DNA of 63,530 nt, the filler included, from an uncultured Clostridia bacterium (GTDB lineage: Bacteria > CAYTYR01 > UBA6262), in the NCBI GenBank assembly GCA_964441745.1. It is 3 parts of 3 records of this genome, joined end to end, with 100 filler letters (N's around TTAATTAATTAA, not from the genome) between each part and the next. Parts side by side here need not be neighbours in the genome. Positions count along the whole stretch, not along the records: positions 1 to 11,463 come from CAYTYR010000010.1; 2 more parts are not named here. One strand, written 5' to 3'. The stretch's first letter is position 1; every line of letters begins with the position of its first letter. The notes beneath the pieces were generated by a model, which searched no databases, was not told where the DNA came from, and saw only the letters and a program-made list of their open reading frames with translations. The position numbers were made by a program, and so were the translations under genes. Of the stretch, positions 1 to 42,667 are shown piece after piece.

Positions 1-73
1 TTTTAGCGCATCCACCTACCAAGAATAGAGCTAAAACCATTAAACAACCGCTTAACCATAGCTTGTTTTTCAT
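1..73 (-). CDS. Lipoprotein, N-terminus only (runs off window start)
   Basis: Manual translation MKNKLWLSGCLMVLALFLVGGCAK: basic N-region, hydrophobic core, lipobox-like VGGC; GGAGG RBS at 79-83. Confidence 0.7.
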   Translation of the reverse strand, partial: MKNKLWLSGCLMVLALFLVGGCAK

Positions 74-124
74 AATTTCCTCCTTTTTAATTACTTACTA
101 AATCTAAATTTAACAGTCTTTTAT

Positions 125-152
125 ATTATACAACCGCCAAACATAAAGTCAA
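125..152 (-). promoter_or_regulatory. Sigma70-type promoter TTGACT-N16-TATAAT for the lipoprotein gene
   Basis: Near-consensus -35/-10 hexamers just downstream of the uvrA stop. Confidence 0.6.
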
Positions 153-153
153 G

Positions 154-2943
154 CTATAAAAACTCTTTCAAATATTGCCCGGTATATGAATTCTTCTCTG
201 CGGCTACCTCTTCCGGCGTTCCGGCAATGATCAACTGCCCGCCGGCCTCTCCTCCCTCTGGTCCCAAATCGATGATCTGATCAGCGGTTTTAACCACATC
301 CAGATTATGCTCGATGATCAAGACGGTATTGCCTTTAGCCGTTAACCGATGCAAAACCTCCAGTAACTTATGGATATCGGCAAAATGCAGCCCAGTCGTT
401 GGTTCATCCAGGATATAGATTGTTTTGCCGGTACTGCGCCGGCCCAATTCTGCCGCTAATTTAACCCTTTGCGCTTCCCCGCCGGACAAGGTGGTAGCTG
501 ACTGGCCCAGCTTGATATACCCCAGCCCAACATCAAAGAGCGACTGCAAAGACCGGTGGATCTGGGGTATCTTTTCGAAGAAAGATAAAGCTTCTTCTAC
601 CGTCATCGCCAATACTTCAGCTATGGTTTTTCCCTTAAATTTAATTTCCAGCGTTTCCTGGTTAAACCTCGCTCCCTTACACTCTTCACACTTAATATAG
701 ACATTAGGCAGGAATTGCATCTCTATTTTAATAACCCCGTCTCCCTGGCAAGTCTCGCATCTGCCACCCTTGACATTAAAACTGAATCTTCCCGGTTCAT
801 ATCCCCTGGCCCGGGACTCAGGCAGTTTGCTGAATAATTCCCTGATCGGAGAGAATAAACCTGTATAAGTAGCCGGATTAGAACGTGGCGTCCGTCCGAT
901 TGGGGATTGGTCAACCATGATCACCTTATCGATCAGGTTCAGTCCCTTGATCGCGGTGAACTTGCCTGGCTTTTCCTTGGCGTTTCCTAATTTTTGGGCC
1001 AGGGCTTTGTAAATAACTTCATTTACTAACGTGCTTTTGCCTGAGCCGCTCACACCGGTGATACAGACAAATAGTCCTAATGGTATCTTGATGTCGATAT
1101 TTTTTAAGTTAAAATGGCTCGCCCCGATTATTTCCAGATATCTGTTTCCCGGTTTCCGCCTTTCCGCAGGCAGAGGGATCTTTATTTTGCCGCTTAAATA
1201 TTTACCGGTAAGAGAATCATTACAGTTTAAGATCGCCGGCAGTGGCCCCTGGCAGACGATCCTGCCCCCGTGTTCACCGGCGCCTGGACCAAGATCTAAA
1301 ATGTAGTCTGCTTTTTTCATGGTATCCACGTCATGTTCTACGATCAAGACAGTATTCCCCAGCCTTTTTAGTTCTTCCAGGCTGTTTAACAAGCGGGCGG
1401 TATCACGGGCATGCAGGCCGATCGTCGGCTCATCCAGGACATACAATACGCCAACCAGGCCGGAACCGATCTGGGTAGCCAGTTGTATCCGCTGGGCCTC
1501 TCCTCCGGCTAAAGTATTCGTCTCCCGGGCTAAAGTAAGGTAATCCAGGCCGACATCCAGTAAAAATTTCAGCCGGGCTTTTATTTCCTTCAATATCTGC
1601 TGGCTGATCTTTTGTTCTTTTTCACTCAAGGACAGGGTCTGAAAAAACTCCATGCACTGCCTGATAGATAATAAGACAACATCAGCGATCGATTTGTTCC
1701 CGATCTTGATGCTTAAAGCTTCCGGGCGCAGGCGCGCGCCTTGGCACGCCGGGCAAGGATGGGTCATCATATACTTATGGTATATTTCCTCCCGTACAAA
1801 ATCACTTTCTGTCTCTTTATAACGCCGCTGCAGATTAGTGATCACCCCTTCAAAAGTGCCGGCGCTATCACCAGATAAGATAATATCCTGTTTTTCCGGT
1901 GAAAGTTTTTTAAAAGGCGTTTCCAGCGAAATCCCGTACTTTTTTGATACCCCCGCCAGCAACTCGAAATACCAGTTATTCCAAGCTCCTTTCCAGCGGT
2001 GCCGCTTGGTAGTGATCGGCTGGCTCCACGGGACCAAAGCCCCCTCATAAATGGATAAGTTCCGGTCCGGGACCACCAGGTCAGGATCCACCTCGATCTT
2101 ATGCCCTAACCCGGTACATTCTGGACAGGCGCCCTGAGGCGCATTGAAAGAGAAAAACCGCGGCATTATTTCCGGCAGGCTGATGCCGCATTTTTGACAG
2201 GCATGATGTTCACTATAAACCTGGTCTTGTCCCGCTATATTGACCACTACCATGCCCTGGCCAAGCTTCAGCGCTGTTTCTACGGAATCCGCGATCCTGC
2301 TTTTTGAGCCTGGGGATACTTCGATCCGGTCCAGTAATACCAGGATATCATGCTTCTTCTTTTTATCCAGTTTGATGTCTTCTTCCAGGGCATATTGCTT
2401 ACCATCGATCCGGACCTTGAGATATCCTTCTTTGCGCACCCGCTCAAATAAATCCCGGTACTCTCCCTTGCGACCCTGCACCAGCGGAGACAGTATCTGG
2501 ACCTTAGCGCCAAAAGGAAGTTTATTGATCTGGGTGATGATCTGCTGGGCGGTTTGCGGTTGTATCGGTGAGCCGCATTGCGGGCAGAATGGCTTGCCGA
2601 TGCGGGCAAAGAGCAGACGCATATAATCATAGATTTCAGTGGTCGTCCCTACCGTGGACCGCGGATTGTGCGACATGGCTTTTTGCTGGATCGCGATCGC
2701 TGGAGACAAACCTTCAATATAATCAAGATCGGGTTTGTCCATTTGTTCCAGGAACTGGCGGGCATAGGCGCTTAATGATTCCACATAACGCCGCTGTCCT
2801 TCTGCGTAGATAGTATCAAAGGCCAACGATGACTTGCCTGAACCAGACATACCGGTGATCACGACCATCTGGTTCCGTGGTATTTCCACATCAATATTTT
2901 TTAAATTGTGCTCTCTGGCGCCTTTAATGATTATCTTGTCCAT
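154..2943 (-). CDS. uvrA: Excinuclease ABC subunit A
   Basis: GAREHNLKN start, two Walker A motifs ([16 protein letters not shown]), zinc-finger CxxC pairs, LAGGEAQR and LSGGEAQR signatures. Confidence 0.98.
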
Positions 2944-2955
2944 AATTTATCTTTA

Positions 2956-3117
2956 AAATTCTAAATCCTAAACAAAACCTAAGCCCTAAATTCAAATTTC
3001 AAAACACTACCCCATTTAATTTTGAGCAGGCGATATTGTTTACCTGTCCCCGCGTCTTTGATTTGTACCTTAGTACAAATCAGCAGGGGAGAGTTTAGAT
3101 ATTAGGATTTCGGATTT
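2956..3117. repeat. Empty heptamer-array inverted repeat (AAATYCT family) with a nested palindromic insert at 3043-3090
   Basis: Left arm aaattct-aaatcct-aaac..., right arm ...gtttagatattaggatttcggattt; same family as 9342, 14853 and 21892. Confidence 0.75.
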
Positions 3118-3895
3118 ATGCCTTCCCTATCAGTTCTTCGATCTTCTTTAATAATACTTGTGGTTCAAAAGGTTTAGTCATATAGGCGTTTGCCCCCAAT
3201 TGCCGGCCAAGGTTCCTGGATTCATCAGCACTGCGGGCAGTCAACATAATGATCGGGATATTTTTATAATTATTATCAAATTTGAGCATCCGGCATACCT
3301 TAAATCCATCTATCACCGGCAATACCAGGTCTAAAAGGATCAAATTGGGTACAACCTGATGCACCAGGTCTAAGCCAGTTTTTCCATCATGAGCCATAAA
3401 CACATTATAGCCATTGGCTTCCAGCCGGATTTTCAACATCCTGGCTATAGGCACTTCATCATCAACTACGACAATCTTTTTGCGGTTATCAGTTTCCAGC
3501 GGCACCTCTTTGGCCTGGGATTCCCCCAGCAGCTGTTCGGTCATATAGACAATAATATCCGCTGCCGCCGGTTTTTTCACATATTTGGCGATCCCCAGGT
3601 CCTGTGCCTCCAGTAAAGCATCCTTTTCATTTTCATCAGACAAGATCAGGATCGGCCAGTTTTTAGTGCGCTCGGTTGTTTTCAACCGGCGTATTACTTC
3701 CAGCATGCTGATGACCGGTATTTTATCATCGATCACCACCACATCAAAAGTATGTTCGGCAGTCATGATCTCATAAAGCCCGCGTTTGCCGTCACCGCTT
3801 ACGGTCACTTCAAAATTATTGGTATTGAACTTGGCTTTAAGCTCTTCCCCCAGCTCATAGTTATCACTTAAGATTAAAATACTTTTATTAACCAT
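3116..3895 (-). CDS. Tandem receiver-domain response regulator (REC-REC)
   Basis: Second domain canonical (VVVDDE, LLDLVLP, MLTA, KPF); first domain atypical (ILSDN, IDDKIP, KKP). Confidence 0.88.
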   Translation of the reverse strand: MVNKSILILSDNYELGEELKAKFNTNNFEVTVSGDGKRGLYEIMTAEHTFDVVVIDDKIPVISMLEVIRRLKTTERTKNWPILILSDENEKDALLEAQDLGIAKYVKKPAAADIIVYMTEQLLGESQAKEVPLETDNRKKIVVVDDEVPIARMLKIRLEANGYNVFMAHDGKTGLDLVHQVVPNLILLDLVLPVIDGFKVCRMLKFDNNYKNIPIIMLTARSADESRNLGRQLGANAYMTKPFEPQVLLKKIEELIGKA

Positions 3896-3906
3896 TTACG
3901 ACCTCT

Positions 3907-3986
3907 GCGTAAAGCGTATGGCGTATAGCGTATAGTAAATAATCACAAGTTTTTCCTATACGCTGAACGCTACCCGCTATCCGCTA
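3907..3986. repeat. Heptamer-array inverted repeat (GCGTATA family)
   Basis: gcgtaaa-gcgtatg-gcgtata-gcgtata ... ctatacg-ctgaacg-ctacccg-ctatccg; close sibling at 32398-32478. Confidence 0.85.
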
Positions 3987-3989
3987 CTT

Positions 3990-4355
3990 TTATTTTAAAA
4001 GTTTCCTGATCTTTTCCATTAATATTGCCGGCTCGAACGGTTTGGGCATATAATCATCCGCACCGGAGATCACTCCCAGGTCATTGGCTTGTTCCTCTGC
4101 TTTCACTGACAGCATTATCACCGGAATGTTCTTGAGAAATGGATCTCCCTTCAGCCGGCGGCATACTTCGAATCCATCCATTTTCGGCATCATGACATCC
4201 AGGATGATCAAGTCAGGCTTATACTGCTGGACTTTGGCTAAGCCTTCTTCACCGTCATAGGCGATATCTGTCTCATAACCAAAAGATTCCATGCGTATCT
4301 TTAGCAGTCTGGTGATCTGCTTCTCATCATCAACGATCAGTATCTTCTTTTTCAT
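3990..4355 (-). CDS. Single-domain response regulator receiver
   Basis: ILIVDDE, ILDVMMP, MLS, KPF motifs. Confidence 0.93.
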   Translation of the reverse strand: MKKKILIVDDEKQITRLLKIRMESFGYETDIAYDGEEGLAKVQQYKPDLIILDVMMPKMDGFEVCRRLKGDPFLKNIPVIMLSVKAEEQANDLGVISGADDYMPKPFEPAILMEKIRKLLK

Positions 4356-4365
4356 AGGGTTCCTT

Positions 4366-5820
4366 TTACAAAGGACGATCTTGCAAGTTGTTGTGAGCGA
4401 ATTCCAGCAATTCTTTCGACTTATTTTGATTGTCCGGATAGACCGCCTTGCCGATTTTTAACCAGGGTTTTTTGCCTTTGATCAGGACTTCGGCTTTATG
4501 CAGCGACTCGATGATCCTGTGCTCCACTGCCTTGACCCCTTCTGCATTAGCTTCAGGTAAAATTACGATCAGTTCCTCTGCTTCAATGATCACTTTGTCA
4601 TACGGGCGGCGCACGGTACGGCTGATCACCTGTTCAATCTTTTTCAGTTCCATTTCTATTTCAAAACCAGCCAGGTCTTTAAAATTTTCAACCTTGATGA
4701 CCATTACTGAAAACTTGGACTGGTAAATATAGGCTGTTTTGATCACTTCTTCCATGACCAGCGTCAGGTAATTCTTATGCTGGCGTTCTTCCAGGAACAA
4801 TTCATCTTCAGACTTTATTTTTATTTCTGACTCTTTCTGTCCGGAATAGCAGGGCAAAGTAAAGGTAAATTTACTTCCTTTACCTAATTCACTATGCACA
4901 GAGATACTCCCGCCATGGGCTTCGACCAGGCTTTTGGCAATAGACAATCCCAAACCACTGCCGCCGCTTTGCCTGGTGAGATGAGAGCCGATCTGGTAGA
5001 ATTTTTCAAAGATCCTGTCCACTTCTTCCTTCGGTATACCCAGGCCCGTATCCGCCACGCTGACTTCCACAAAACCCTCAACCTGGTCACTCTCTCTCAT
5101 TGGTATTCTTGCACTCGAAGCCACCGTGATCCGGCCGCCTTCACTGGTAAATTTAATGGCATTGTCTATCAGGTTAGTCACAACTTGCGTTATCTTGTCA
5201 GAGTCGCCAAATATCTTGGGCAGGTTCCGGGAAATATCAAATTCCAAGGCTATCCTTTTATCCTGCATTGTGCCTCGATAGCCATCCCTTAAATTTTCCA
5301 GCAGTTTATTCACATCAACTTCTCTTTTTGCCAGCTGCAACCGGCCAGCTTCGATGCGGCTGACATCCAGCAGGTCACTGATCAGGCGGCTTAAACGGCT
5401 GGCACCGTCCAAGGCCATATTCAGGCATTCTTTTTGCATCTCGTTCACTGGGCCAGTGGTCCCGTCCAGGTTTAGCCTGATGCCTTCTTTGATAATAGTC
5501 AGCGGCGTCCGTAATTCATGACTGACCATGGAAACAAATTCACTTTTGGTCTGGTTTAAGCGGCGCAATTCATTCGTCTGCTGGTTAAGCCGTTCATACG
5601 CAAAACTTAACTCATCATTCGCCGCCAGCAATTCAGACTGGGCTGCCTGCAACTCTTGCTGGCTGACCGTCAATTCTTTATTCTTTACTACACAGAGGTT
5701 ATCGCTTTGGCGCTTACGCCAGTAACCTATAGCCAGCAAAATTATCACTGAAAAGATCAGTAATAATAAAATGATCAGCAAATACACATTGATTGGCACA
5801 GTCACCGGTTCTCCCCCCAA
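4366..5820 (-). CDS. Membrane sensor histidine kinase with C-terminal degenerate GGDEF-like domain
   Basis: N-terminal TM helix, H-box [30 protein letters not shown]; tail resembles a GGDEF fold lacking GG(D/E)EF. Confidence 0.9.
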
Positions 5821-5842
5821 TTAAAGTGGGTTTAAAGCTATT

Positions 5843-7438
5843 TCAGAGGCTTAGCAGCGTATCTTTCTGCCATTGTAAATCATTTCTTTCAGGATAGTCA
5901 ATAGTATAATGCAAACCGCGGCTTTCCTTGCGTTTGATCGCTGATTTAATGATAATTTCCGCTACTGTGGCAATATTGCGCAACTCCAGCAAGTCACTGG
6001 TAATAATAAAATTCCAGTAATATTCGGCAATCTCCTTTTGTAACATCTCAATCCGGCGTTTAGCCCGGGCCAGGCGTTTTTCTGAGCGGACAATGCCGAC
6101 ATAGTTCCACATTAACCGTCTGATCTCATCCCAGTTATGCGTGACCATGATCGATTCGTCGCTTTCCACGGCCTTGCCGCTGTCCCAAGGTTTAACCGGA
6201 GGGAAGGAAACTTTACTTCGCACATCCAGGATCGCATCTTGCGAAGCGTTATGCGCATACACCATTGCTTCCAGCAAGGAGTTACTGGCCAGGCGGTTAG
6301 CGCCATGCAAACCAGAATGTGCCACTTCCCCAATAGCATAAAGCCGGTCAAGAGTTGTCCGGCCGTTCATATCAGTCATAATACCGCCGCACATATAATG
6401 AGCCGCCGGAGCCACCGGGATAGGCTGTTTTGTCAGATCAATGCCAAAAGACTTGCACTTTTTGTATATATTAGGGAATCTTTTCTTAATATAAGCGGCT
6501 GGTTTATGAGTAATATCTAAATAGACGCACTCATTACCAGTTCTCTTAAGCTCTGTATCGATCGCCCTGGCCACTATGTCCCGCGGCGCCAGATCTTTTA
6601 AGGGATGATATTTTTTCATGAAGGCCGTGCCGTCTTTCAGCCTGAGGATACCGCCCTCGCCGCGGACTGATTCGCTCACCAGGAATGATTTTGCCTCTGG
6701 GTGATAGAGACAGGTCGGATGGAATTGGATGAACTCCATATTGGCGATCTTCGCTCCCGCGCGATAGGCCATGGCTACGCCATCTCCGGTCGCTGTATCA
6801 GGATTACTCGTGAGCAGGTACACTTTCCCCGCTCCTCCGGTAGCCAAGACCGTTATCTTGGACTGGAAAGTAATAACTGCTTTTTTAGCAATATCCAGGA
6901 CATATGCTCCCCAGCAAGTATTATCATTCGTGTTTTTGATCAGGTTTATAGCCATATGATCTTCAAAGATGCTGATATTCTTTTCCCGTTTGACCCGGGC
7001 CAGTAATTTTTCTTCGATCTCCCGGCCGGTCAGATCCTGGGCATGGACAATGCGGCGCTTGGAGTGGCCGCCTTCCCTGGTCAAGTCCAAATGCTCCTCA
7101 TCTTTATCCCAGCGGGTAAATTTTACGCCATATTGCAACAGTTCGCGGATACGTGCCGGCGCGCTTTTGACGACCATAGCCACGACATCCGGATGACAAA
7201 GGCCAGCGCCAGCGATCAAGGTATCTTTAATATGCATTTGGAATGAATCCTCACTGCTCAACACCGCGGCCACACCGCCCTGGGCATAAAACGTGGAAGA
7301 TTCAGTAGCCTGTTTCTTGGTAATAATGGCTACCGTACCATGCCGAGCCACTTTCAGGGCAAACGACAGCCCCGCCACCCCGCTGCCAATGACGAGAAAA
7401 TCAAACTGTATTTGTTTAGGCTTGAGTTTTTTGCTCAT
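5843..7438 (-). CDS. nadB: L-aspartate oxidase
   Basis: GSGVAG FAD motif, [32 protein letters not shown]. Confidence 0.96.
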
Positions 7439-8373
7439 CCTGCCACCATATTATCGATCAATCGTGTTTTGCCGATATAAACAGCCACGGCAATTACAAC
7501 TTTTCCTTTGAGCAACTTTACCGGTTCAAGAGTTTCCGCATCCACAATCTCAAGATAATCAATCCTTCGACTTCCCCGGGGTATGCTCAGGATTAATACT
7601 GAGCGGCGCTTTTGACTGCGGCCTAAATGCCGCAGCTTAGCGCCGTCGAATGTATCAACCTGCGCCAGCAAATTACTTTCAATAACATTCCTGATCTCTT
7701 GCTTGATCTTATTTGCATCTTTCACTTTGCTCTTGATCATGGCCTTAGCGACTTTAAGAGCTTCATACAAACAGGTCGCTGACTTTCTTTCCTCAGGGTT
7801 CAAATACTGGTTACGCGAGCTCATAGCCAATCCGTCTTGCTCGCGGATGATCGGGCAAGCTACAATTTGAACTGCTATATTTAAATCTTGCAGCATCTGC
7901 TTAATGACTTGCACCTGCTGGTAATCTTTTTGCCCGAAATAGGCGTTGTCTGCCGGCACTGCGTTAAACAATTTATTGACGATCGTAGCCACACCGCGGA
8001 AATGCCCTGGACGCGACGCTCCGCACAGTCCCTGGGCAATTTTGCCCACTTCCACATAGGTCTGATATCCTGCCGGATACATTTCTTCTACGCTGGGATT
8101 GAAAATAACATCTGCTCCGGCACTCTTAGCCAAGCGCACATCTTTCGCCAAAGGTCTGGGATATTTTTTAAAATCTTCTTTTGGACCGAACTGCGTTGGA
8201 TTGACAAAAATGCTTACCACTACTAAGTCGTTTTCTTTGGCTGCCCTGCGAATCAGGCTCAAATGCCCCTCATGCAGCGCCCCCATCGTCGGCACGAAAC
8301 CTATCTTCTTGCCAGCTTTCTTGGCAGCAGCTACATATTTTTGCATTTGTTTAATCTTTTTTATACTCTTCAT
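7435..8373 (-). CDS. panC: Pantoate--beta-alanine ligase, carrying a 32-aa in-frame insertion
   Basis: [41 protein letters not shown] motifs. Confidence 0.96.
7563..7653. mobile_element. Palindromic MITE-like element inserted in frame in panC
   Basis: TCCTTCGAC...GCTCAGGATTAATACTGAGC...GTCGAATGT, flanked by ATCAA direct repeats (7558-7562, 7654-7658); sibling at 28638-28715. Confidence 0.8.
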
Positions 8374-8443
8374 AGGCCCTTCGGCGATTTCGCGGATTTT
8401 AAAAACGATTACGCGAATATATTAGTAACAGCGAGCCAAAACA

Positions 8444-9337
8444 TTATTTCAAGTACTTGTCAAAAAAGCTGACCACTCTTTTCTCATACTCTCTCGGCCA
8501 CAAGCTTCGCGCTTCCAGGTGATCCGCCTCCGGCGCTAGCCACAACTGCTTCGGCTCCCCGGCTGCCTTAAACAGCTCTTTCTGATTTTCCAGCGGTATC
8601 CGTTGATCCCTGTACCCGCCGATAATAAAGACCGGACGCGGTGAGATTTTTCCGATATATTTTGTGGCATCTGCTTTCCCGGCATTAAAACCGGCACGTA
8701 ATTGGGCGAACCAGATAGCTGGTGGGACAAATGGATACTTAGGCAATTTATAGAATAACTTGGCAAACCTGGTTACTGTTCCTGCAAAAGAAGCAAACCC
8801 GCTGTCTGCCACCACCGCTTTGATCCGCTGGTCATTAGCTGCGCCGATAATAGCTGTATTAGCTCCCATGGAGCAACCAAGCACGCCGATCTTGTTCTGA
8901 TCAATATCTTCGCGGGTCATTAAGTAATTAACTGCGCCAGCCAGGTCCCTGGTCTCGTTATAGCCCAGGGTACATTGCCCCTTGGTCTGGCCGTGCCCGC
9001 GGAAATCAAAGACTAAAACATTATACCTGTGGTGATGCAGTATTTCCGCGAAATTCAGGACATCACTTTTATTAGCGCCATAGCCATGCAGGACTATGAC
9101 TGTCGGCCTGTTTTTGGCGCCTGGGATAAAAAAACCGTTGGTCTTGATACCATCGGTAGAGGAAAAGGTCACATCTTCATAAGGCATCTCAAATGCTGAA
9201 GGCTTGGTATCCAGGTCATAGCGCTGCGGGACCAGGATCAGCCGTGACGCGCTCCATCCCCAGATTACCGTCATGGCAACGATAACCACTACTATGGAAA
9301 CCCAAACATTAACATGTATATTTGTAATATTATTCAT
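8444..9337 (-). CDS. Membrane-anchored alpha/beta hydrolase
   Basis: N-terminal TM, LHGYG, FDFRGHG, nucleophile elbow GCSMG, C-terminal Asp/His. Confidence 0.88.
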   Translation of the reverse strand: MNNITNIHVNVWVSIVVVIVAMTVIWGWSASRLILVPQRYDLDTKPSAFEMPYEDVTFSSTDGIKTNGFFIPGAKNRPTVIVLHGYGANKSDVLNFAEILHHHRYNVLVFDFRGHGQTKGQCTLGYNETRDLAGAVNYLMTREDIDQNKIGVLGCSMGANTAIIGAANDQRIKAVVADSGFASFAGTVTRFAKLFYKLPKYPFVPPAIWFAQLRAGFNAGKADATKYIGKISPRPVFIIGGYRDQRIPLENQKELFKAAGEPKQLWLAPEADHLEARSLWPREYEKRVVSFFDKYLK

Positions 9338-9341
9338 TTTA

Positions 9342-9804
9342 AAATTCTAAATCCTAATATCTAAATTCTAAACAAATCTAAATTTCAAATATCTAAATTT
9401 AAAATTACTTTGATTTTTCAACTATGGAGCCAAATATTTTCATTAGTTCTGTTGCTTCTTGCATTATTTGTATTTTTAGAGCTTCTTGATCTATGAGCGG
9501 CTCACTCAGAGTTATCCAATATCTACTTTCTTTTGCTTCCTTACGAGATATCTTAATACGCATTATAAAATCTTTTCTACTCAAGGCCTCATTAGCTTCA
9601 ATATAATTAGCCCCTACCGAAGCAGCTGATCTAAAAAGCTGCTTAGCAATTTCTATGTTTGAAACGGTTCTTGGAAGACAATTAACATAGTTAGCAACTT
9701 GTTTAGTAAATTGCATTGTCCTGGGTTCTAAATCATACTGTTTTGGGTTTCGAATTTCATTCATTTGGATTTATTTAGGATTTCGATATTAGAATTTAGA
9801 GTTT
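9342..9804. mobile_element. Four-helix-bundle gene cassette bounded by 42-bp heptamer-array inverted repeats
   Basis: Arms 9342-9383 and 9763-9804 match at 36 of 42 positions as an inverted repeat (manual alignment); AT-rich gene between them. Confidence 0.7.
9405..9764 (-). CDS. Four-helix-bundle protein (23S rRNA intervening-sequence protein family)
   Basis: QL.RSA.SVGANY.EA, SRKDF, KISRKEAKES.YW motifs typical of this family. Confidence 0.9.
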   Translation of the reverse strand: MNEIRNPKQYDLEPRTMQFTKQVANYVNCLPRTVSNIEIAKQLFRSAASVGANYIEANEALSRKDFIMRIKISRKEAKESRYWITLSEPLIDQEALKIQIMQEATELMKIFGSIVEKSK

Positions 9805-9807
9805 GCG

Positions 9808-10605
9808 CTAATAACTGTGTTTTTTGTCGGGGAATTTGCCGGATTCCACTTCTTGTTTATACTGCTTGAACGCCTGCAGCATCATCTTCCCCACCTCCGC
9901 ATATTTCTTCACGAATTTCGGCTTAAAATCCGGGAACAGTCCCAGCATATCGTTAGTCACTATTACCTGTCCGTCGCAATATTTACCTGCGCCGCAGCTG
10001 ATAGTCGGTATATCCAGACTTTCAGTGATTTCTTTCGCCAACTGCCAAGGGACACTTTCCAGCACTATGGAAAAAACGCCTGCTTCCTGCAGCAACAAGG
10101 CGTCCTCTTTTAATCTCTCCGCCTGTACTTTCTCCCGGCCTTGCACTTTGTATCCGCCCATCTTATGCACTGCCTGGGGAGTCAATCCGATATGCCCCAT
10201 GACCGGGATATCAGCGTCCAGCATCGCCTTGATCGTCTTGATCATTTCCCGTCCACCTTCGATCTTGACTGCCTCAGCGCCGCCTTCCTTGAGGAACCGT
10301 CCCGCATTGCGCACTGCCTCGCTGGGCTTGATCTGGTATGAAAGATACGGCATATCCGCAACTAACAAAGAAAGCTTATTGCCTCTTTTCACTGCCTTGA
10401 CATGATGCAGCATTTCTTCAATTGTCACCGGCAATGTCGTCTCATAGCCAAGCACTACCATCGCCAGGGAATCCCCAACCAAAAGGATATCAATGCCAGC
10501 TTCATTCATCAGCCTGGCCGTGGGATAATCATAGCAAGTGAGCATGGATATTTTTTGTTGCGCTTGTTTTTTAGTTTGTAAGGTTGTAATCGTTACTTTT
10601 CCCAT
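9808..10605 (-). CDS. panB: 3-methyl-2-oxobutanoate hydroxymethyltransferase
   Basis: MLTCYD, LVGDSL, ADMP, VKIEGG, GHIGLTPQ, PKFVK motifs. Confidence 0.97.
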   Translation of the reverse strand: MGKVTITTLQTKKQAQQKISMLTCYDYPTARLMNEAGIDILLVGDSLAMVVLGYETTLPVTIEEMLHHVKAVKRGNKLSLLVADMPYLSYQIKPSEAVRNAGRFLKEGGAEAVKIEGGREMIKTIKAMLDADIPVMGHIGLTPQAVHKMGGYKVQGREKVQAERLKEDALLLQEAGVFSIVLESVPWQLAKEITESLDIPTISCGAGKYCDGQVIVTNDMLGLFPDFKPKFVKKYAEVGKMMLQAFKQYKQEVESGKFPDKKHSY

Positions 10606-11066
10606 TTAAAGGTACTCCTATCTAAGGCCGGAGCAATTTCCTGGAGCGGCTTTAAGACAAAACCCCGTTTACTAATTTGGGGGGGAGGGATGATGAGTTT
10701 GCTACTATTCACTTTTCTGCCTTCGTACAGCAATATATCTATATCGATGAGCCGGGGTCCCCAGTGTACAGACTTCACACGTCCCATAGTTTTTTCAATA
10801 ACCTTAACCTGTTTTAATAACTGCAATGGAGTTAAGTTAGTTTTTGCTTCTACGACTGCGTTCAGGAAATCCGGCTGATTTAAATACCCGACTGGTTTTG
10901 TTTTATAGAATGAAGAAACTTTCGTTACTTTCATTTCCCGCCGTAATAACCTGATCGCTTCTCTTATATTCTTTCTCTTATTCCCCAAATTCGTCCCTAT
11001 TCCCAAGTATACTATTCGCTCTGCTGTCCGCTGTCCGCTGTCCGCTGTCCGCTGTTTAGCTACCAT
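10593..11066 (-). CDS. folK: 2-amino-4-hydroxy-6-hydroxymethyldihydropteridine diphosphokinase
   Basis: YLGIGTNLG, QPDFLNAV, WGPRLIDIDIL; N-terminus formed by a heptamer repeat. Confidence 0.94.
   Translation of the reverse strand: MVAKQRTADSGQRTAERIVYLGIGTNLGNKRKNIREAIRLLRREMKVTKVSSFYKTKPVGYLNQPDFLNAVVEAKTNLTPLQLLKQVKVIEKTMGRVKSVHWGPRLIDIDILLYEGRKVNSSKLIIPPPQISKRGFVLKPLQEIAPALDRSTFKWEK
11023..11055. repeat. Tandem heptamer (CTGTCCG) x about 4.5 inside the folK 5' end
   Basis: Directly visible; encodes QRTADSGQRTA. Confidence 0.9.
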
Positions 11067-11463
11067 TTTATCTTTTCGATACGTTTCAGCGCTTCCTGCA
11101 GGCGTTTCTTATCCTGGGTCAGAGCAAATCTGACGTATCCCTCTCCCGACGGTCCAAAGCCAATACCAGGAGTAGCTACAATACCCGCCTGCTCCAAGAG
11201 CACTGAAGAACAGTGCATCGAGGTGTAGCGCGGCGGGACTTCTGCCCAGACATAGAAGCTGGCCTTAGGCTTATCCACTTTCCAGCCCAGCTTTTTTAGT
11301 CCATCCACAAAAATATCACGGCGTTCCTGGAACACCTCCCGCATTTTATCGACGCATTTCTGATCCCCGGTCAAGGCCGCTATTCCGGCAAATTGCACTG
11401 CCTGGAACACGCCTGAATCAACATTTTCTTTTACTTTGGCCAATCCCTGCAATATCTTGGCAT
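11060..11463 (-). CDS. dapL: LL-diaminopimelate aminotransferase-like class I aminotransferase, C-terminal part (cut by gap)
   Basis: K.NVDSGVFQAVQ.AG, PKASFYVW, TPG.GFG.SGEGYVRFAL. Confidence 0.82.
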
Positions 11464-11563
11464 NNNNNNNNNNNNNNNNNNNNNNNNNNNNNNNNNNNNN
11501 NNNNNNNTTAATTAATTAANNNNNNNNNNNNNNNNNNNNNNNNNNNNNNNNNNNNNNNNNNNN
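11464..11563. other. Artificial contig linker (N44-TTAATTAATTAA-N44)
   Basis: 100-nt N block with a core giving stops in all six frames; identical design at 42568. Confidence 0.97.
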
Positions 11564-14852: not shown

Positions 14853-15010
14853 AAATCCGAATATCTAATTTCTAAATCCTAAACAATAATCAAGCGCTAA
14901 ATTCCAATTTTAAACTATCTATATCTGAGCTTTTAAAATTCTAAACACTTTGGTTTTGAACATTAAACATTTGAAATTGTCTATGATTTCAGGCTTAGGA
15001 TTTAGAATTT
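14853..15010. repeat. Empty heptamer-array inverted repeat (AAATYCT family)
   Basis: aaatccg-aatatct-aatttct-aaatcct-aaac ... ttaggatttagaattt, between pilP-like gene and pilQ. Confidence 0.75.
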
Positions 15011-21872: not shown

Positions 21873-21891
21873 ACACTCTCCCACAAGCACG

Positions 21892-21980
21892 AAATTCTAA
21901 TATCGAAATACTAAACGCTTTTGTTTTGGATTTAATCAATTTGAATTTATTTCGAATTTCGGATTTAGATATTCGAATTT
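21892..21980. repeat. Empty heptamer-array inverted repeat (AAATYCT family)
   Basis: aaattct-aatatcg-aaatact-aaac ... ttcgaatttcggatttagatattcgaattt, between pilB and pilC. Confidence 0.75.
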
Positions 21981-42567: not shown

Positions 42568-42667
42568 NNNNNNNNNNNNNNNNNNNNNNNNNNNNNNNNN
42601 NNNNNNNNNNNTTAATTAATTAANNNNNNNNNNNNNNNNNNNNNNNNNNNNNNNNNNNNNNNNNNNN
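42568..42667. other. Artificial contig linker
   Basis: N block with TTAATTAATTAA core. Confidence 0.97.

Follow-up and report, generated by a model that had tools for sequence, protein, structure and literature searches.

Why should a small gene of a four-helix-bundle protein, enclosed on both sides by arrays of a 7-nt repeat, stand in the middle of a pantothenate operon? The question is raised by the 63,530-nt stretch of DNA analyzed here (the window), which comes from an uncultured Clostridia bacterium (GenBank assembly GCA_964441745.1; 2.07 Mb, 44% G+C, and 98% complete). The window joins three contigs of this assembly, with positions 1–11463 from contig C10, 11564–42567 from C20, and those from 42668 onward from C28; the N runs at 11464–11563 and 42568–42667 are the C10/C20/C28 joins, and distances across them are not real. 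The gene and its two arms of repeats, together referred to as the cassette, lie on C10 as follows.

9405..9764, minus strand: gene of a four-helix-bundle protein (PF05635/TIGR02436) of 119 aa, identified by profiles and a predicted structure
9763..9804, minus strand: 5' arm (gene sense), from the inverted-repeat alignment, with a register matching the consensus of 116 homologous loci
9342..9404, minus strand: 3' arm (gene sense), of which 9342–9383 pairs with the 5' arm; supported by a tandem repeat call

We are somewhat more inclined to accept than to doubt that this is a cassette of the intervening sequence (IVS) type placed in a protein-coding operon, that its protein binds its own heptads, and that its arms are built of subfamily-specific heptads in a register fixed to the start codon.

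The paired segments, 9342–9383 and 9763–9804, are 42 nt each, lie 379 nt apart, and are complementary at 36 of 42 positions (86%). A first-pass annotation of this DNA had described 42-bp heptamer arms with 36 of 42 matches around an AT-rich gene, and this description held on re-measurement: the local alignment of one flank against the other scores 54, compared with no more than 31 in any of 200 shuffles (z 11.6), and Tandem Repeats Finder reports a period of 7 with the consensus AAATTCT at 9342–9403. The heptad word of the arms is AAATYCK. The 5' arm reads AAACTCT AAATTCT AATATCG AAATCCT AAATAAA TCCAAAT, its inner end running into the start codon, so that the ATG abuts the arm, and no Shine-Dalgarno-like sequence is present. 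In the 3' arm, 9374–9405 is the second copy of a 32-nt block, the copies being 72% alike. Rfam searches of the cassette, and of positions 2900–4100 of the window, gave no match.

The protein scores 54.5 bits against PF05635 (cut-off 33.8) and 72.4 bits against TIGR02436 (cut-off 24), and profile searches returned these two families only, with no nuclease or recombinase family and no HUH/Y1 transposase. Its structure model (pLDDT 93.2) has helices at residues 13–29, 34–58, 63–86, and 91–118 and is closest in fold to BT_0352 (2RLD, TM 0.75), which is also matched by sequence (E 2.8e-13), and to Xcc0516 (2GSC, TM up to 0.79); both entries contain five chains. Among the PADLOC defense models, no family matched the window protein, and a paralogue gave one stray weak match (E 0.0049). 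The motif GxxRxxxSxxxNxxE (PMC3936711) is represented by R45, S49, N53, and E56, with Q42 rather than G at the first position.

The same fold is found in Avd, the accessory protein of diversity-generating retroelements (DGRs), and a role of this kind was considered. Chains of Avd and of a DGR ribonucleoprotein (4DWL and 8UB7, the entry titles placing Avd in a ribonucleoprotein) match the model at TM ~0.7, and one paralogue reaches 39.8 bits on the Avd model NF033474. That score is below the cut-off of 80, however, and the window protein does not match the model; moreover, the cassette has neither a reverse transcriptase nor template/variable repeats, and no reverse transcriptase domain (PF00078) was found in the 98% complete genome. 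We regard the Avd role as highly improbable, and it is excluded for this genome, barring a reverse transcriptase in unassembled sequence. The likeness of fold to Avd had been stated in the first-pass annotation, together with ORF (open reading frame)-bearing IVSs that are stem-bounded and cut by RNase III; such IVSs are indeed described in a passage of PMC4990558.

Across the source genome, all seven PF05635 genes are flanked by heptad arrays, each gene by its own word, and all seven cassettes are co-oriented with both neighbors. Six of the genes have inverted arms (z 10.5, 5.9, 3.5, 3.6, 14.4, and 11.6). The remaining gene, which is truncated at its 5' end, is accompanied only by an array of AACTCGC, 75 nt long and located 3' of the gene. 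The proteins form two groups, one of which is accompanied by A/T-rich words. In the whole genome, 144 tandem arrays have a period of 7, as against 11 with a period of 6 and 23 with a period of 8 at matched thresholds. A looser scan gave 239 arrays, including 74 of AGCGTAT (plus 10 degenerate ones), 26 of AAATTCT, 21 of ATGGCTT, 19 of GAGTTTT, and 5 of GCGAGTT, and each of the four largest heptad families has a cognate PF05635 gene. These family counts are taken from a word-based classification and not from an early heptad matrix, which accepts CTATACG too and whose totals (66 + 67 arrays vs 8 in shuffles) combine two families, AAATTCT and AGCGTAT. For several words, for example TCCGCTG (16 arrays) and GCGGATG (8 arrays), the 98% complete assembly contains no partner gene.

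Paired arrays were then considered together with what lies between them. Sixty-five hairpin pairs were found in this genome, two with a PF05635 gene in the loop, two others with loops of more than 300 nt that contain host genes, and 61 without any gene. The genome-wide scan for 7-nt inverted arms and their cargo, which the first-pass annotation had proposed, thus found the four-helix-bundle gene as the sole cargo. Two other candidates were rejected: a HIT-family gene at C9:37872-38495, where the arms have the wrong polarity, and a HEPN-like gene at C14:47654-48253, where the arms are weak and 18 nt long. At one locus (L247, G000:C2:110900-121700), three PF05635 cassettes occupy successive gaps of a polysaccharide biosynthesis/export operon, which encodes UDP-glucose dehydrogenase (with an intein splicing domain), Poly_export/SLBB, and Wzz/GNVR proteins.

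The association is not confined to this genome. Of the 41 genomes sampled around the source genome, 17 contain PF05635. Inverted arms at z >3.5 were found at 21 of 24 PF05635 loci from 14 other genomes and at none of 24 control positions shifted by 1000 nt; of 19 further loci, 15 have arms at z >3.5, 2 have degenerate visible arrays, and 2 have none. The period of the arms is mostly 7, and some PF05635 subfamilies have arms of period 8 (GTAAAGCT-like) or 9 (AACCGTTTA-like), as seen at L044, L063, and L042. At L080 (G015:C33:18701-20015), the arms also enclose a tRNA gene, which separates the four-helix-bundle gene from the 3' arm, indicating that other cargo can be carried within the arms.

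For the subfamily of the window protein, at least 586 relatives were found in genome contigs and at least 565 in metagenome contigs; viral contigs of IMG/VR yielded one partial relative, so that carriage by phages is not indicated. A genome of another family (G018) encodes a 65% identical protein between the same AAATTCT arms. Among the matches listed, 80 loci at 53–67% protein identity are in species-representative genomes of Omnitrophota, Desulfobacterota, Patescibacteria, Planctomycetota, Chloroflexota, Bacteroidota, Ignavibacteriota, and other phyla. Seventy-six of these had enough flank for arm tests, and 67 have inverted arms at z >=3.5. The AAATYCK matrix derived from the window was matched by at least one arm in 60 of the 76 loci, compared with 2 of 72 and 2 of 71 for regions farther out; arms of the wrong polarity matched in 3 and 6 in the same test. 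The gene is co-oriented with both neighbors in 55 loci and opposed to both in one.

When loci from metagenome contigs were added, giving 116 in total, the 42 nt before the ATG were found in a fixed register: four AAAYNCK heptads, then AAAC, then AAATTCA, and then AATG, with A at position −1 in 98%. This fixed register implies that the translation start is part of the arm, and no conserved Shine-Dalgarno sequence was present upstream of the ATG in the 116 loci. The comparisons also bear on a trivial explanation, namely that the arms are chance or slippage-prone simple sequence beside an unrelated small gene, as the AT-rich flanks of low complexity could suggest. The shuffles (z 11.6), the offset controls (no arms at any of the 24), and the conservation of word and register across phyla refute such an origin, to which we attach practically no credence.

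The arms occur in two forms, T (AAATTCT) and G (AAATTCG). A single alignment column follows the form of the arm; in the window protein, this column is residue 116, the E of the tail SIVEKSK.

Residue 116 = E: 57 loci, mean share of CG-type units 0.08
Residue 116 = R: 39 loci, mean share of CG-type units 0.82
Residue 116 = Q, K, H, or N: 8, 3, 2, and 4 loci, respectively, mean share of CG-type units 0.58–0.83
Residue 116 = T or V: 11 and 2 loci, respectively, mean share of CG-type units 0–0.07

With R/K/Q/H/N assigned to G and E/T/V to T/A, 107 of the 109 loci with a clear arm type are concordant. The units of the source genome are mostly of the T type (T 72, A 30, and G 30), in line with E116. 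The codons for Arg-116 are diverse (AGG, CGC, CGT, CGG, CGA, and AGA) and lie outside the repeats, and therefore the signal is at the protein level. On the tree, 9 changes of arm type and 10 changes of residue class were counted, and 8 of 9 independent pairs are in the expected direction (sign test p 0.039 on the best tree, branch support ignored). The residues found with guanine are hydrogen-bond donors, and in chemical terms the covariation is thus consistent with base reading. We consider the covariation between residue 116 and base 7 of the heptad suggestive, but not proof, of base reading by the protein. Together with the retention of subfamily-specific heptads across phyla, this one residue-base covariation lends indirect support to the binding of the heptads by the protein.

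How the cassette came to lie in its present position can be judged from the neighboring genes.

9808..10605, minus strand: panB (ketopantoate hydroxymethyltransferase), upstream host gene, profile match of 397 bits
8444..9337, minus strand: alpha/beta hydrolase gene, downstream host gene, from the ORF and a profile match
7435..8373, minus strand: panC, next after the hydrolase gene, from the ORF and a profile match

On the minus strand of C10, the order is folK, panB, the 119-aa ORF, the alpha/beta hydrolase gene, panC, and nadB, and the cassette gene has the orientation of its host operon. The location within the panB-panC operon given in the first-pass annotation is correct, the cassette lying between panB and the hydrolase gene, which is followed by panC. 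The outer end of the 5' arm is 3 nt from the panB stop codon, and that of the 3' arm is 4 nt from the hydrolase ATG. Farther upstream, a single GTCCGCT array of about 5 units (11012–11060) overlaps the called N-terminus of folK (ORF 10593–11066), which suggests that the true start of folK is probably further downstream; the 16 arrays of the GTCCGCT family are mostly unpaired and have no PF05635 partner in the assembly.

The panB-hydrolase junction measures 470 nt in the source genome, with the cassette within it, whereas the spacer is about 35 nt in a genome of the same genus (G001) and 0 and about 33 nt in two genomes of the same class (G008 and G007, respectively). The cassette has therefore been inserted into what is otherwise a short spacer. 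The presence/absence comparison at this junction, which had been suggested on first inspection, thus showed that the cassette is not invariant among relatives. Three other congeners (G002, G003, and G004) have a different, G+C-rich insert at the same junction; the insert measures about 470 nt in G002 and G004 and is incomplete at the G003 locus. This insert (L009:1025-1497 in G002, L010 in G004, and L036 in G003) contains no PF05635 gene and looks structured, and an Rfam search of the G002 copy gave no match. The empty spacers and the different insert of the congeners indicate that the junction is a repeatedly used insertion point. In addition, a 197-nt contig from another study spans 9671–9861 (the start of the gene, the arm, and the end of panB) with 6 differences, and this match places the cassette at the same junction in a near relative.

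Of the marks of an insertion sequence or MITE, a transposase is absent from the cassette, and the filled and empty spacers, with a DNA identity of about 80%, are too diverged for a target-site duplication to be read. Joints that skip 363–398 nt between arms were encountered in four DNA runs and were examined as candidates for excision at the window locus. They were assigned to the gene-less hairpins of other loci because their flanks are unlike the window and the arms are at 5–7x the local depth. Of the earlier description of the element as mobile or excisable, insertion and the existence of filled and gene-less forms stand, whereas DNA excision was not seen, the joints being from other loci.

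The gene-less hairpins are the second component of the system, and those in the window are listed below.

2942..3124, no strand assigned: gene-less hairpin of the AAATTCT type, with a separate palindromic repeat of about 50 nt in its loop (3040–3090), from repeat scans
14853..15010, no strand assigned: gene-less hairpin of the AAATTCT type, from repeat scans; its 5' arm layout was compared with the 116-locus consensus
21885..21980, no strand assigned: gene-less hairpin of the AAATTCT/AAATTCG type with a loop of 27–41 nt, from repeat scans
3905..3987, no strand assigned: gene-less hairpin of a second heptad family (AGCGTAT/ATACGCT), from repeat scans; its cognate gene is at C13:21119-21475

The first three correspond to copies without a gene that the first-pass annotation had pointed out; all three exist, but they are not on one molecule, as the window comprises three contigs. 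The 61 gene-less hairpins of the genome divide into AAATTCT (20), AGCGTAT (15), GAGTTTT (6), TTATGGC (4), CAGCGGA (1), and unclassifiable, degenerate ones (15), and their loops are up to 214 nt long. Their polarity is fixed, 46 of 49 classified hairpins having the same type of word in the left arm, and they fit the spacers tightly, beginning a median of 4 nt past the upstream stop codon and ending 17 nt ahead of the next start codon. The gene-less copies named in the first-pass annotation had been said to lie always between co-oriented genes; 57 of 64 hairpins do so, but this is no signal, since 86–91% of adjacent gene pairs in the genome are co-oriented. In the 14853–15010 hairpin, the 5' arm keeps the layout of the cassette, with four heptads followed by AAACAAT AATCAAG. 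Filled and empty forms of one element family, as originally proposed, were both found, and they share words and polarity. The gene-less hairpins are most likely derivatives that remained after loss of the gene.

A composite of about 160 nt belonging to the 2942–3124 element recurs in at least 6 places in the genome at 72–86% identity, and in congeners too, which implies that it spreads, or has spread, as a unit. The palindromic repeat of about 50 nt (CCCGCGTCTTTGATTTGT...ACAAATCAGCAGGGG type) has many copies with 90–94% identity in the source genome and in all five congeners; it is nested in the loops of heptad hairpins, also lies beside two cassettes on contig C2, and has no Rfam match.

Dispersed hairpins with a single gene recall the repetitive extragenic palindromic (REP) sequences, REPINs, and the REP-associated tyrosine transposases (RAYTs). 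In those systems, a gene present in one copy stands between inverted copies of its cognate repeats, hairpin copies occur in intergenic regions throughout the genome, and one genome can hold several families, each with its own gene; the RAYT itself is HUH/Y1 transposase-like. A comparable DNA system, in which a single-copy, trans-acting DNA-binding factor keeps or spreads cognate hairpins while host enzymes perform the chemistry, would explain why there is one gene per word alongside many gene-less hairpins of the same word (20, 15, 6, and 4 for AAATTCT, AGCGTAT, GAGTTTT, and TTATGGC, respectively), the fixed polarity, the dispersal of the 160-nt composite in at least 6 copies at 72–86% identity, and a gene flanked by its own repeats in inverted order. 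However, the cassette protein is a small four-helix bundle without the HUH/Y1 signature or a match to any nuclease or recombinase family, and the repeats are heptad arrays rather than the single palindromes of REP. Hairpins persist in congeners without the cognate gene, and several heptad families, such as TCCGCTG with its 16 arrays, have no gene in the 98% complete assembly. The strong co-orientation of the gene with host transcription, which distinguishes the cassette from REP, is not required by a model confined to DNA. We therefore consider a REPIN/RAYT-like system quite unlikely.

Returning to the IVS-type reading, we propose the following course of events. The cassette would be transcribed together with the host operon, and pairing of the arms would produce a long stem that conceals the start codon. 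In the predicted fold of the sense RNA, the arms are paired, the whole gene is closed in the loop, and the AUG is just inside the stem. By analogy with rRNA IVSs, this stem could be a substrate of RNase III, which is encoded in the genome (rnc). The protein, the solved relatives of which have five chains, would bind the heptads base-specifically, with residue 116 reading base 7 and about five units per arm being available for five subunits. Such binding might then control translation of the protein itself and perhaps the fate of the stem.

Several points weigh against this proposal. The case for binding, cleavage, and movement is an indirect one. Nine of the 76 subfamily loci have no significant arms, and two longer PF05635 proteins of 169–174 aa (L067 in G002 and L070 in G004) have none either. 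The start of each of these two overlaps the upstream gene; they may be a domesticated form or lie outside any cassette. The congeners G002–G005 have AAATTCT-type hairpins, but no PF05635 gene examined in them has such arms (4 of 4 genes without them in G002, 4 of 4 in G003, 6 of 6 in G004, and 4 of 4 in G005); hairpins can thus outlive the gene. Each subfamily is single-copy in the source genome, and the paralogues are at most 43% identical, which gives no indication that the gene-bearing form has transposed recently. As for residue 116, the proteins are short and their tree has poor resolution, with only one independent pair on well-supported branches. Finally, where the arms mismatch, G·U is no commoner on the sense strand than on the antisense strand, either in the gene-less hairpins of this genome (45 sense vs 57 antisense) or in 67 cassettes (145 sense vs 166 antisense, p 0.26), and transversion mismatches are many (456 in the cassettes). 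The mismatches therefore give no evidence that selection acts on an RNA stem as such.

The mismatches also bear on a rival explanation, in which the cassette is an RNA-structure element only: the stem would be an RNase III site, a stabilizer, or a terminator-like insulator, and the heptads would be kept by leader or translation constraints without being bound by the protein. The predicted stem closing the whole gene, the RNase III of the genome, the placement of the hairpins (close behind the upstream stop codon and ahead of the next start codon, at medians of 4 and 17 nt, respectively), and the documented cleavage of the Coxiella IVS stem by RNase III (in a passage of PMC4990558) all agree with it. 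Without a sense-strand G·U bias, and with many transversion mismatches between the arms, an RNA-only stem is nevertheless not favored; nor would it account for each protein subfamily keeping its own word across phyla or for one protein residue tracking one heptad base. We judge this explanation unlikely. The patterns of mismatch thus suggest that the arms act as binding units arranged in two inverted sets, and that compensatory change has not maintained them as a stem; the same patterns are compatible with pairing or cleavage.

The closest known relative is the IVS in helix 45 of the 23S rRNA of Coxiella burnetii, for which the relevant passages of PMC4990558 report a length of 428 nt, terminal inverted repeats forming a 28-bp stem that RNase III cuts in the middle, an S23p ORF in the loop, and, just before the start codon, a tandem array of GACAGAT heptamers, with two or three copies and one degenerate copy, the number differing among strains; an ORF-bearing IVS in Leptospira is cited there from Ralph and McClelland 1993. 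The cassette resembles this IVS in having a PF05635-family ORF in the loop, terminal inverted repeats able to form a long stem, and heptamers directly before the start codon, in being part of the host transcript (inferred for the cassette), and in the suspicion of a selfish or mobile nature attached to the IVS. Unlike rRNA IVSs, it lies between protein-coding genes of the pantothenate operon and not in a 23S or 16S rRNA gene. The heptad word also differs (AAATYCK vs GACAGAT), the cassette is accompanied by dozens of gene-less hairpins, and cleavage by RNase III is known for the Coxiella element but only proposed for the cassette. The first-pass annotation took the system to be undescribed; heptamers before the IVS ORF of Coxiella had already been noted in PMC4990558, but not, in the passages concerned, as a general rule. 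In the literature covered, with subscription journals outside the coverage, a link between PF05635, four-helix-bundle, or S23p proteins and heptamer repeats was met in the Coxiella description alone, and no paper treating it as a class was found.

Members of the family have also been found in other surroundings. In the part of PMC3936711 that treats them, 18 23S_rRNA_IVP genes lying within cas loci (one such position is between cmr3 and cmr2) are read as a functional link. They are like the cassette gene in belonging to the same family, in being wedged between co-oriented operon genes (Cmr3/Cmr2), and in sharing the R..S..N..E motif; the passage on cas operons mentions no flanking repeats, and the hosts of the cassettes described here are pantothenate and polysaccharide export operons. 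Such unrelated host operons fit insertion rather than partnership, and by analogy this suggests that the IVP genes in cas operons are insertions and do not reflect a functional link with CRISPR-Cas. PF05635-family genes are also reported in rRNA inserts of candidate phyla radiation (CPR) bacteria, in the portion of bioRxiv 10.1101/2024.02.27.582315 that concerns them.

PF05635/TIGR02436 is a very common family of unknown function. The tie between subfamily and word gives it a testable activity, sequence-specific binding, and a candidate specificity residue; it would also explain PF05635 genes wedged into unrelated operons, including cas operons, and offers an origin for dispersed heptanucleotide hairpins.

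Heptanucleotide repeats of another kind are the short tandemly repeated repetitive (STRR) sequences of cyanobacteria, intergenic tandem arrays of 7-nt words with several families per genome. The genome of the cassette likewise has intergenic 7-nt tandem arrays in several families. We know of no protein partner or inverted-arm cassette for STRR sequences, and a link between them and the heptad cassettes is a lead offered by this likeness. We entertain, with more doubt than belief, the broader possibility that PF05635 is a large family of ring-shaped, sequence-specific binders of nucleic acids with a natural residue-to-base code, in which the heptads beside each gene reveal the specificity of its protein and residue 116 would read base 7 (R/K/Q/H/N for G and E/T/V for T/A). 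On this view, the heptanucleotide repeat families of many bacterial genomes, for which an explanation has long been lacking, would be footprints of such cassettes, and the 23S rRNA IVS would be merely the insertion site known best. Were such a code true, these proteins could be small, predictable readers of nucleic acids.

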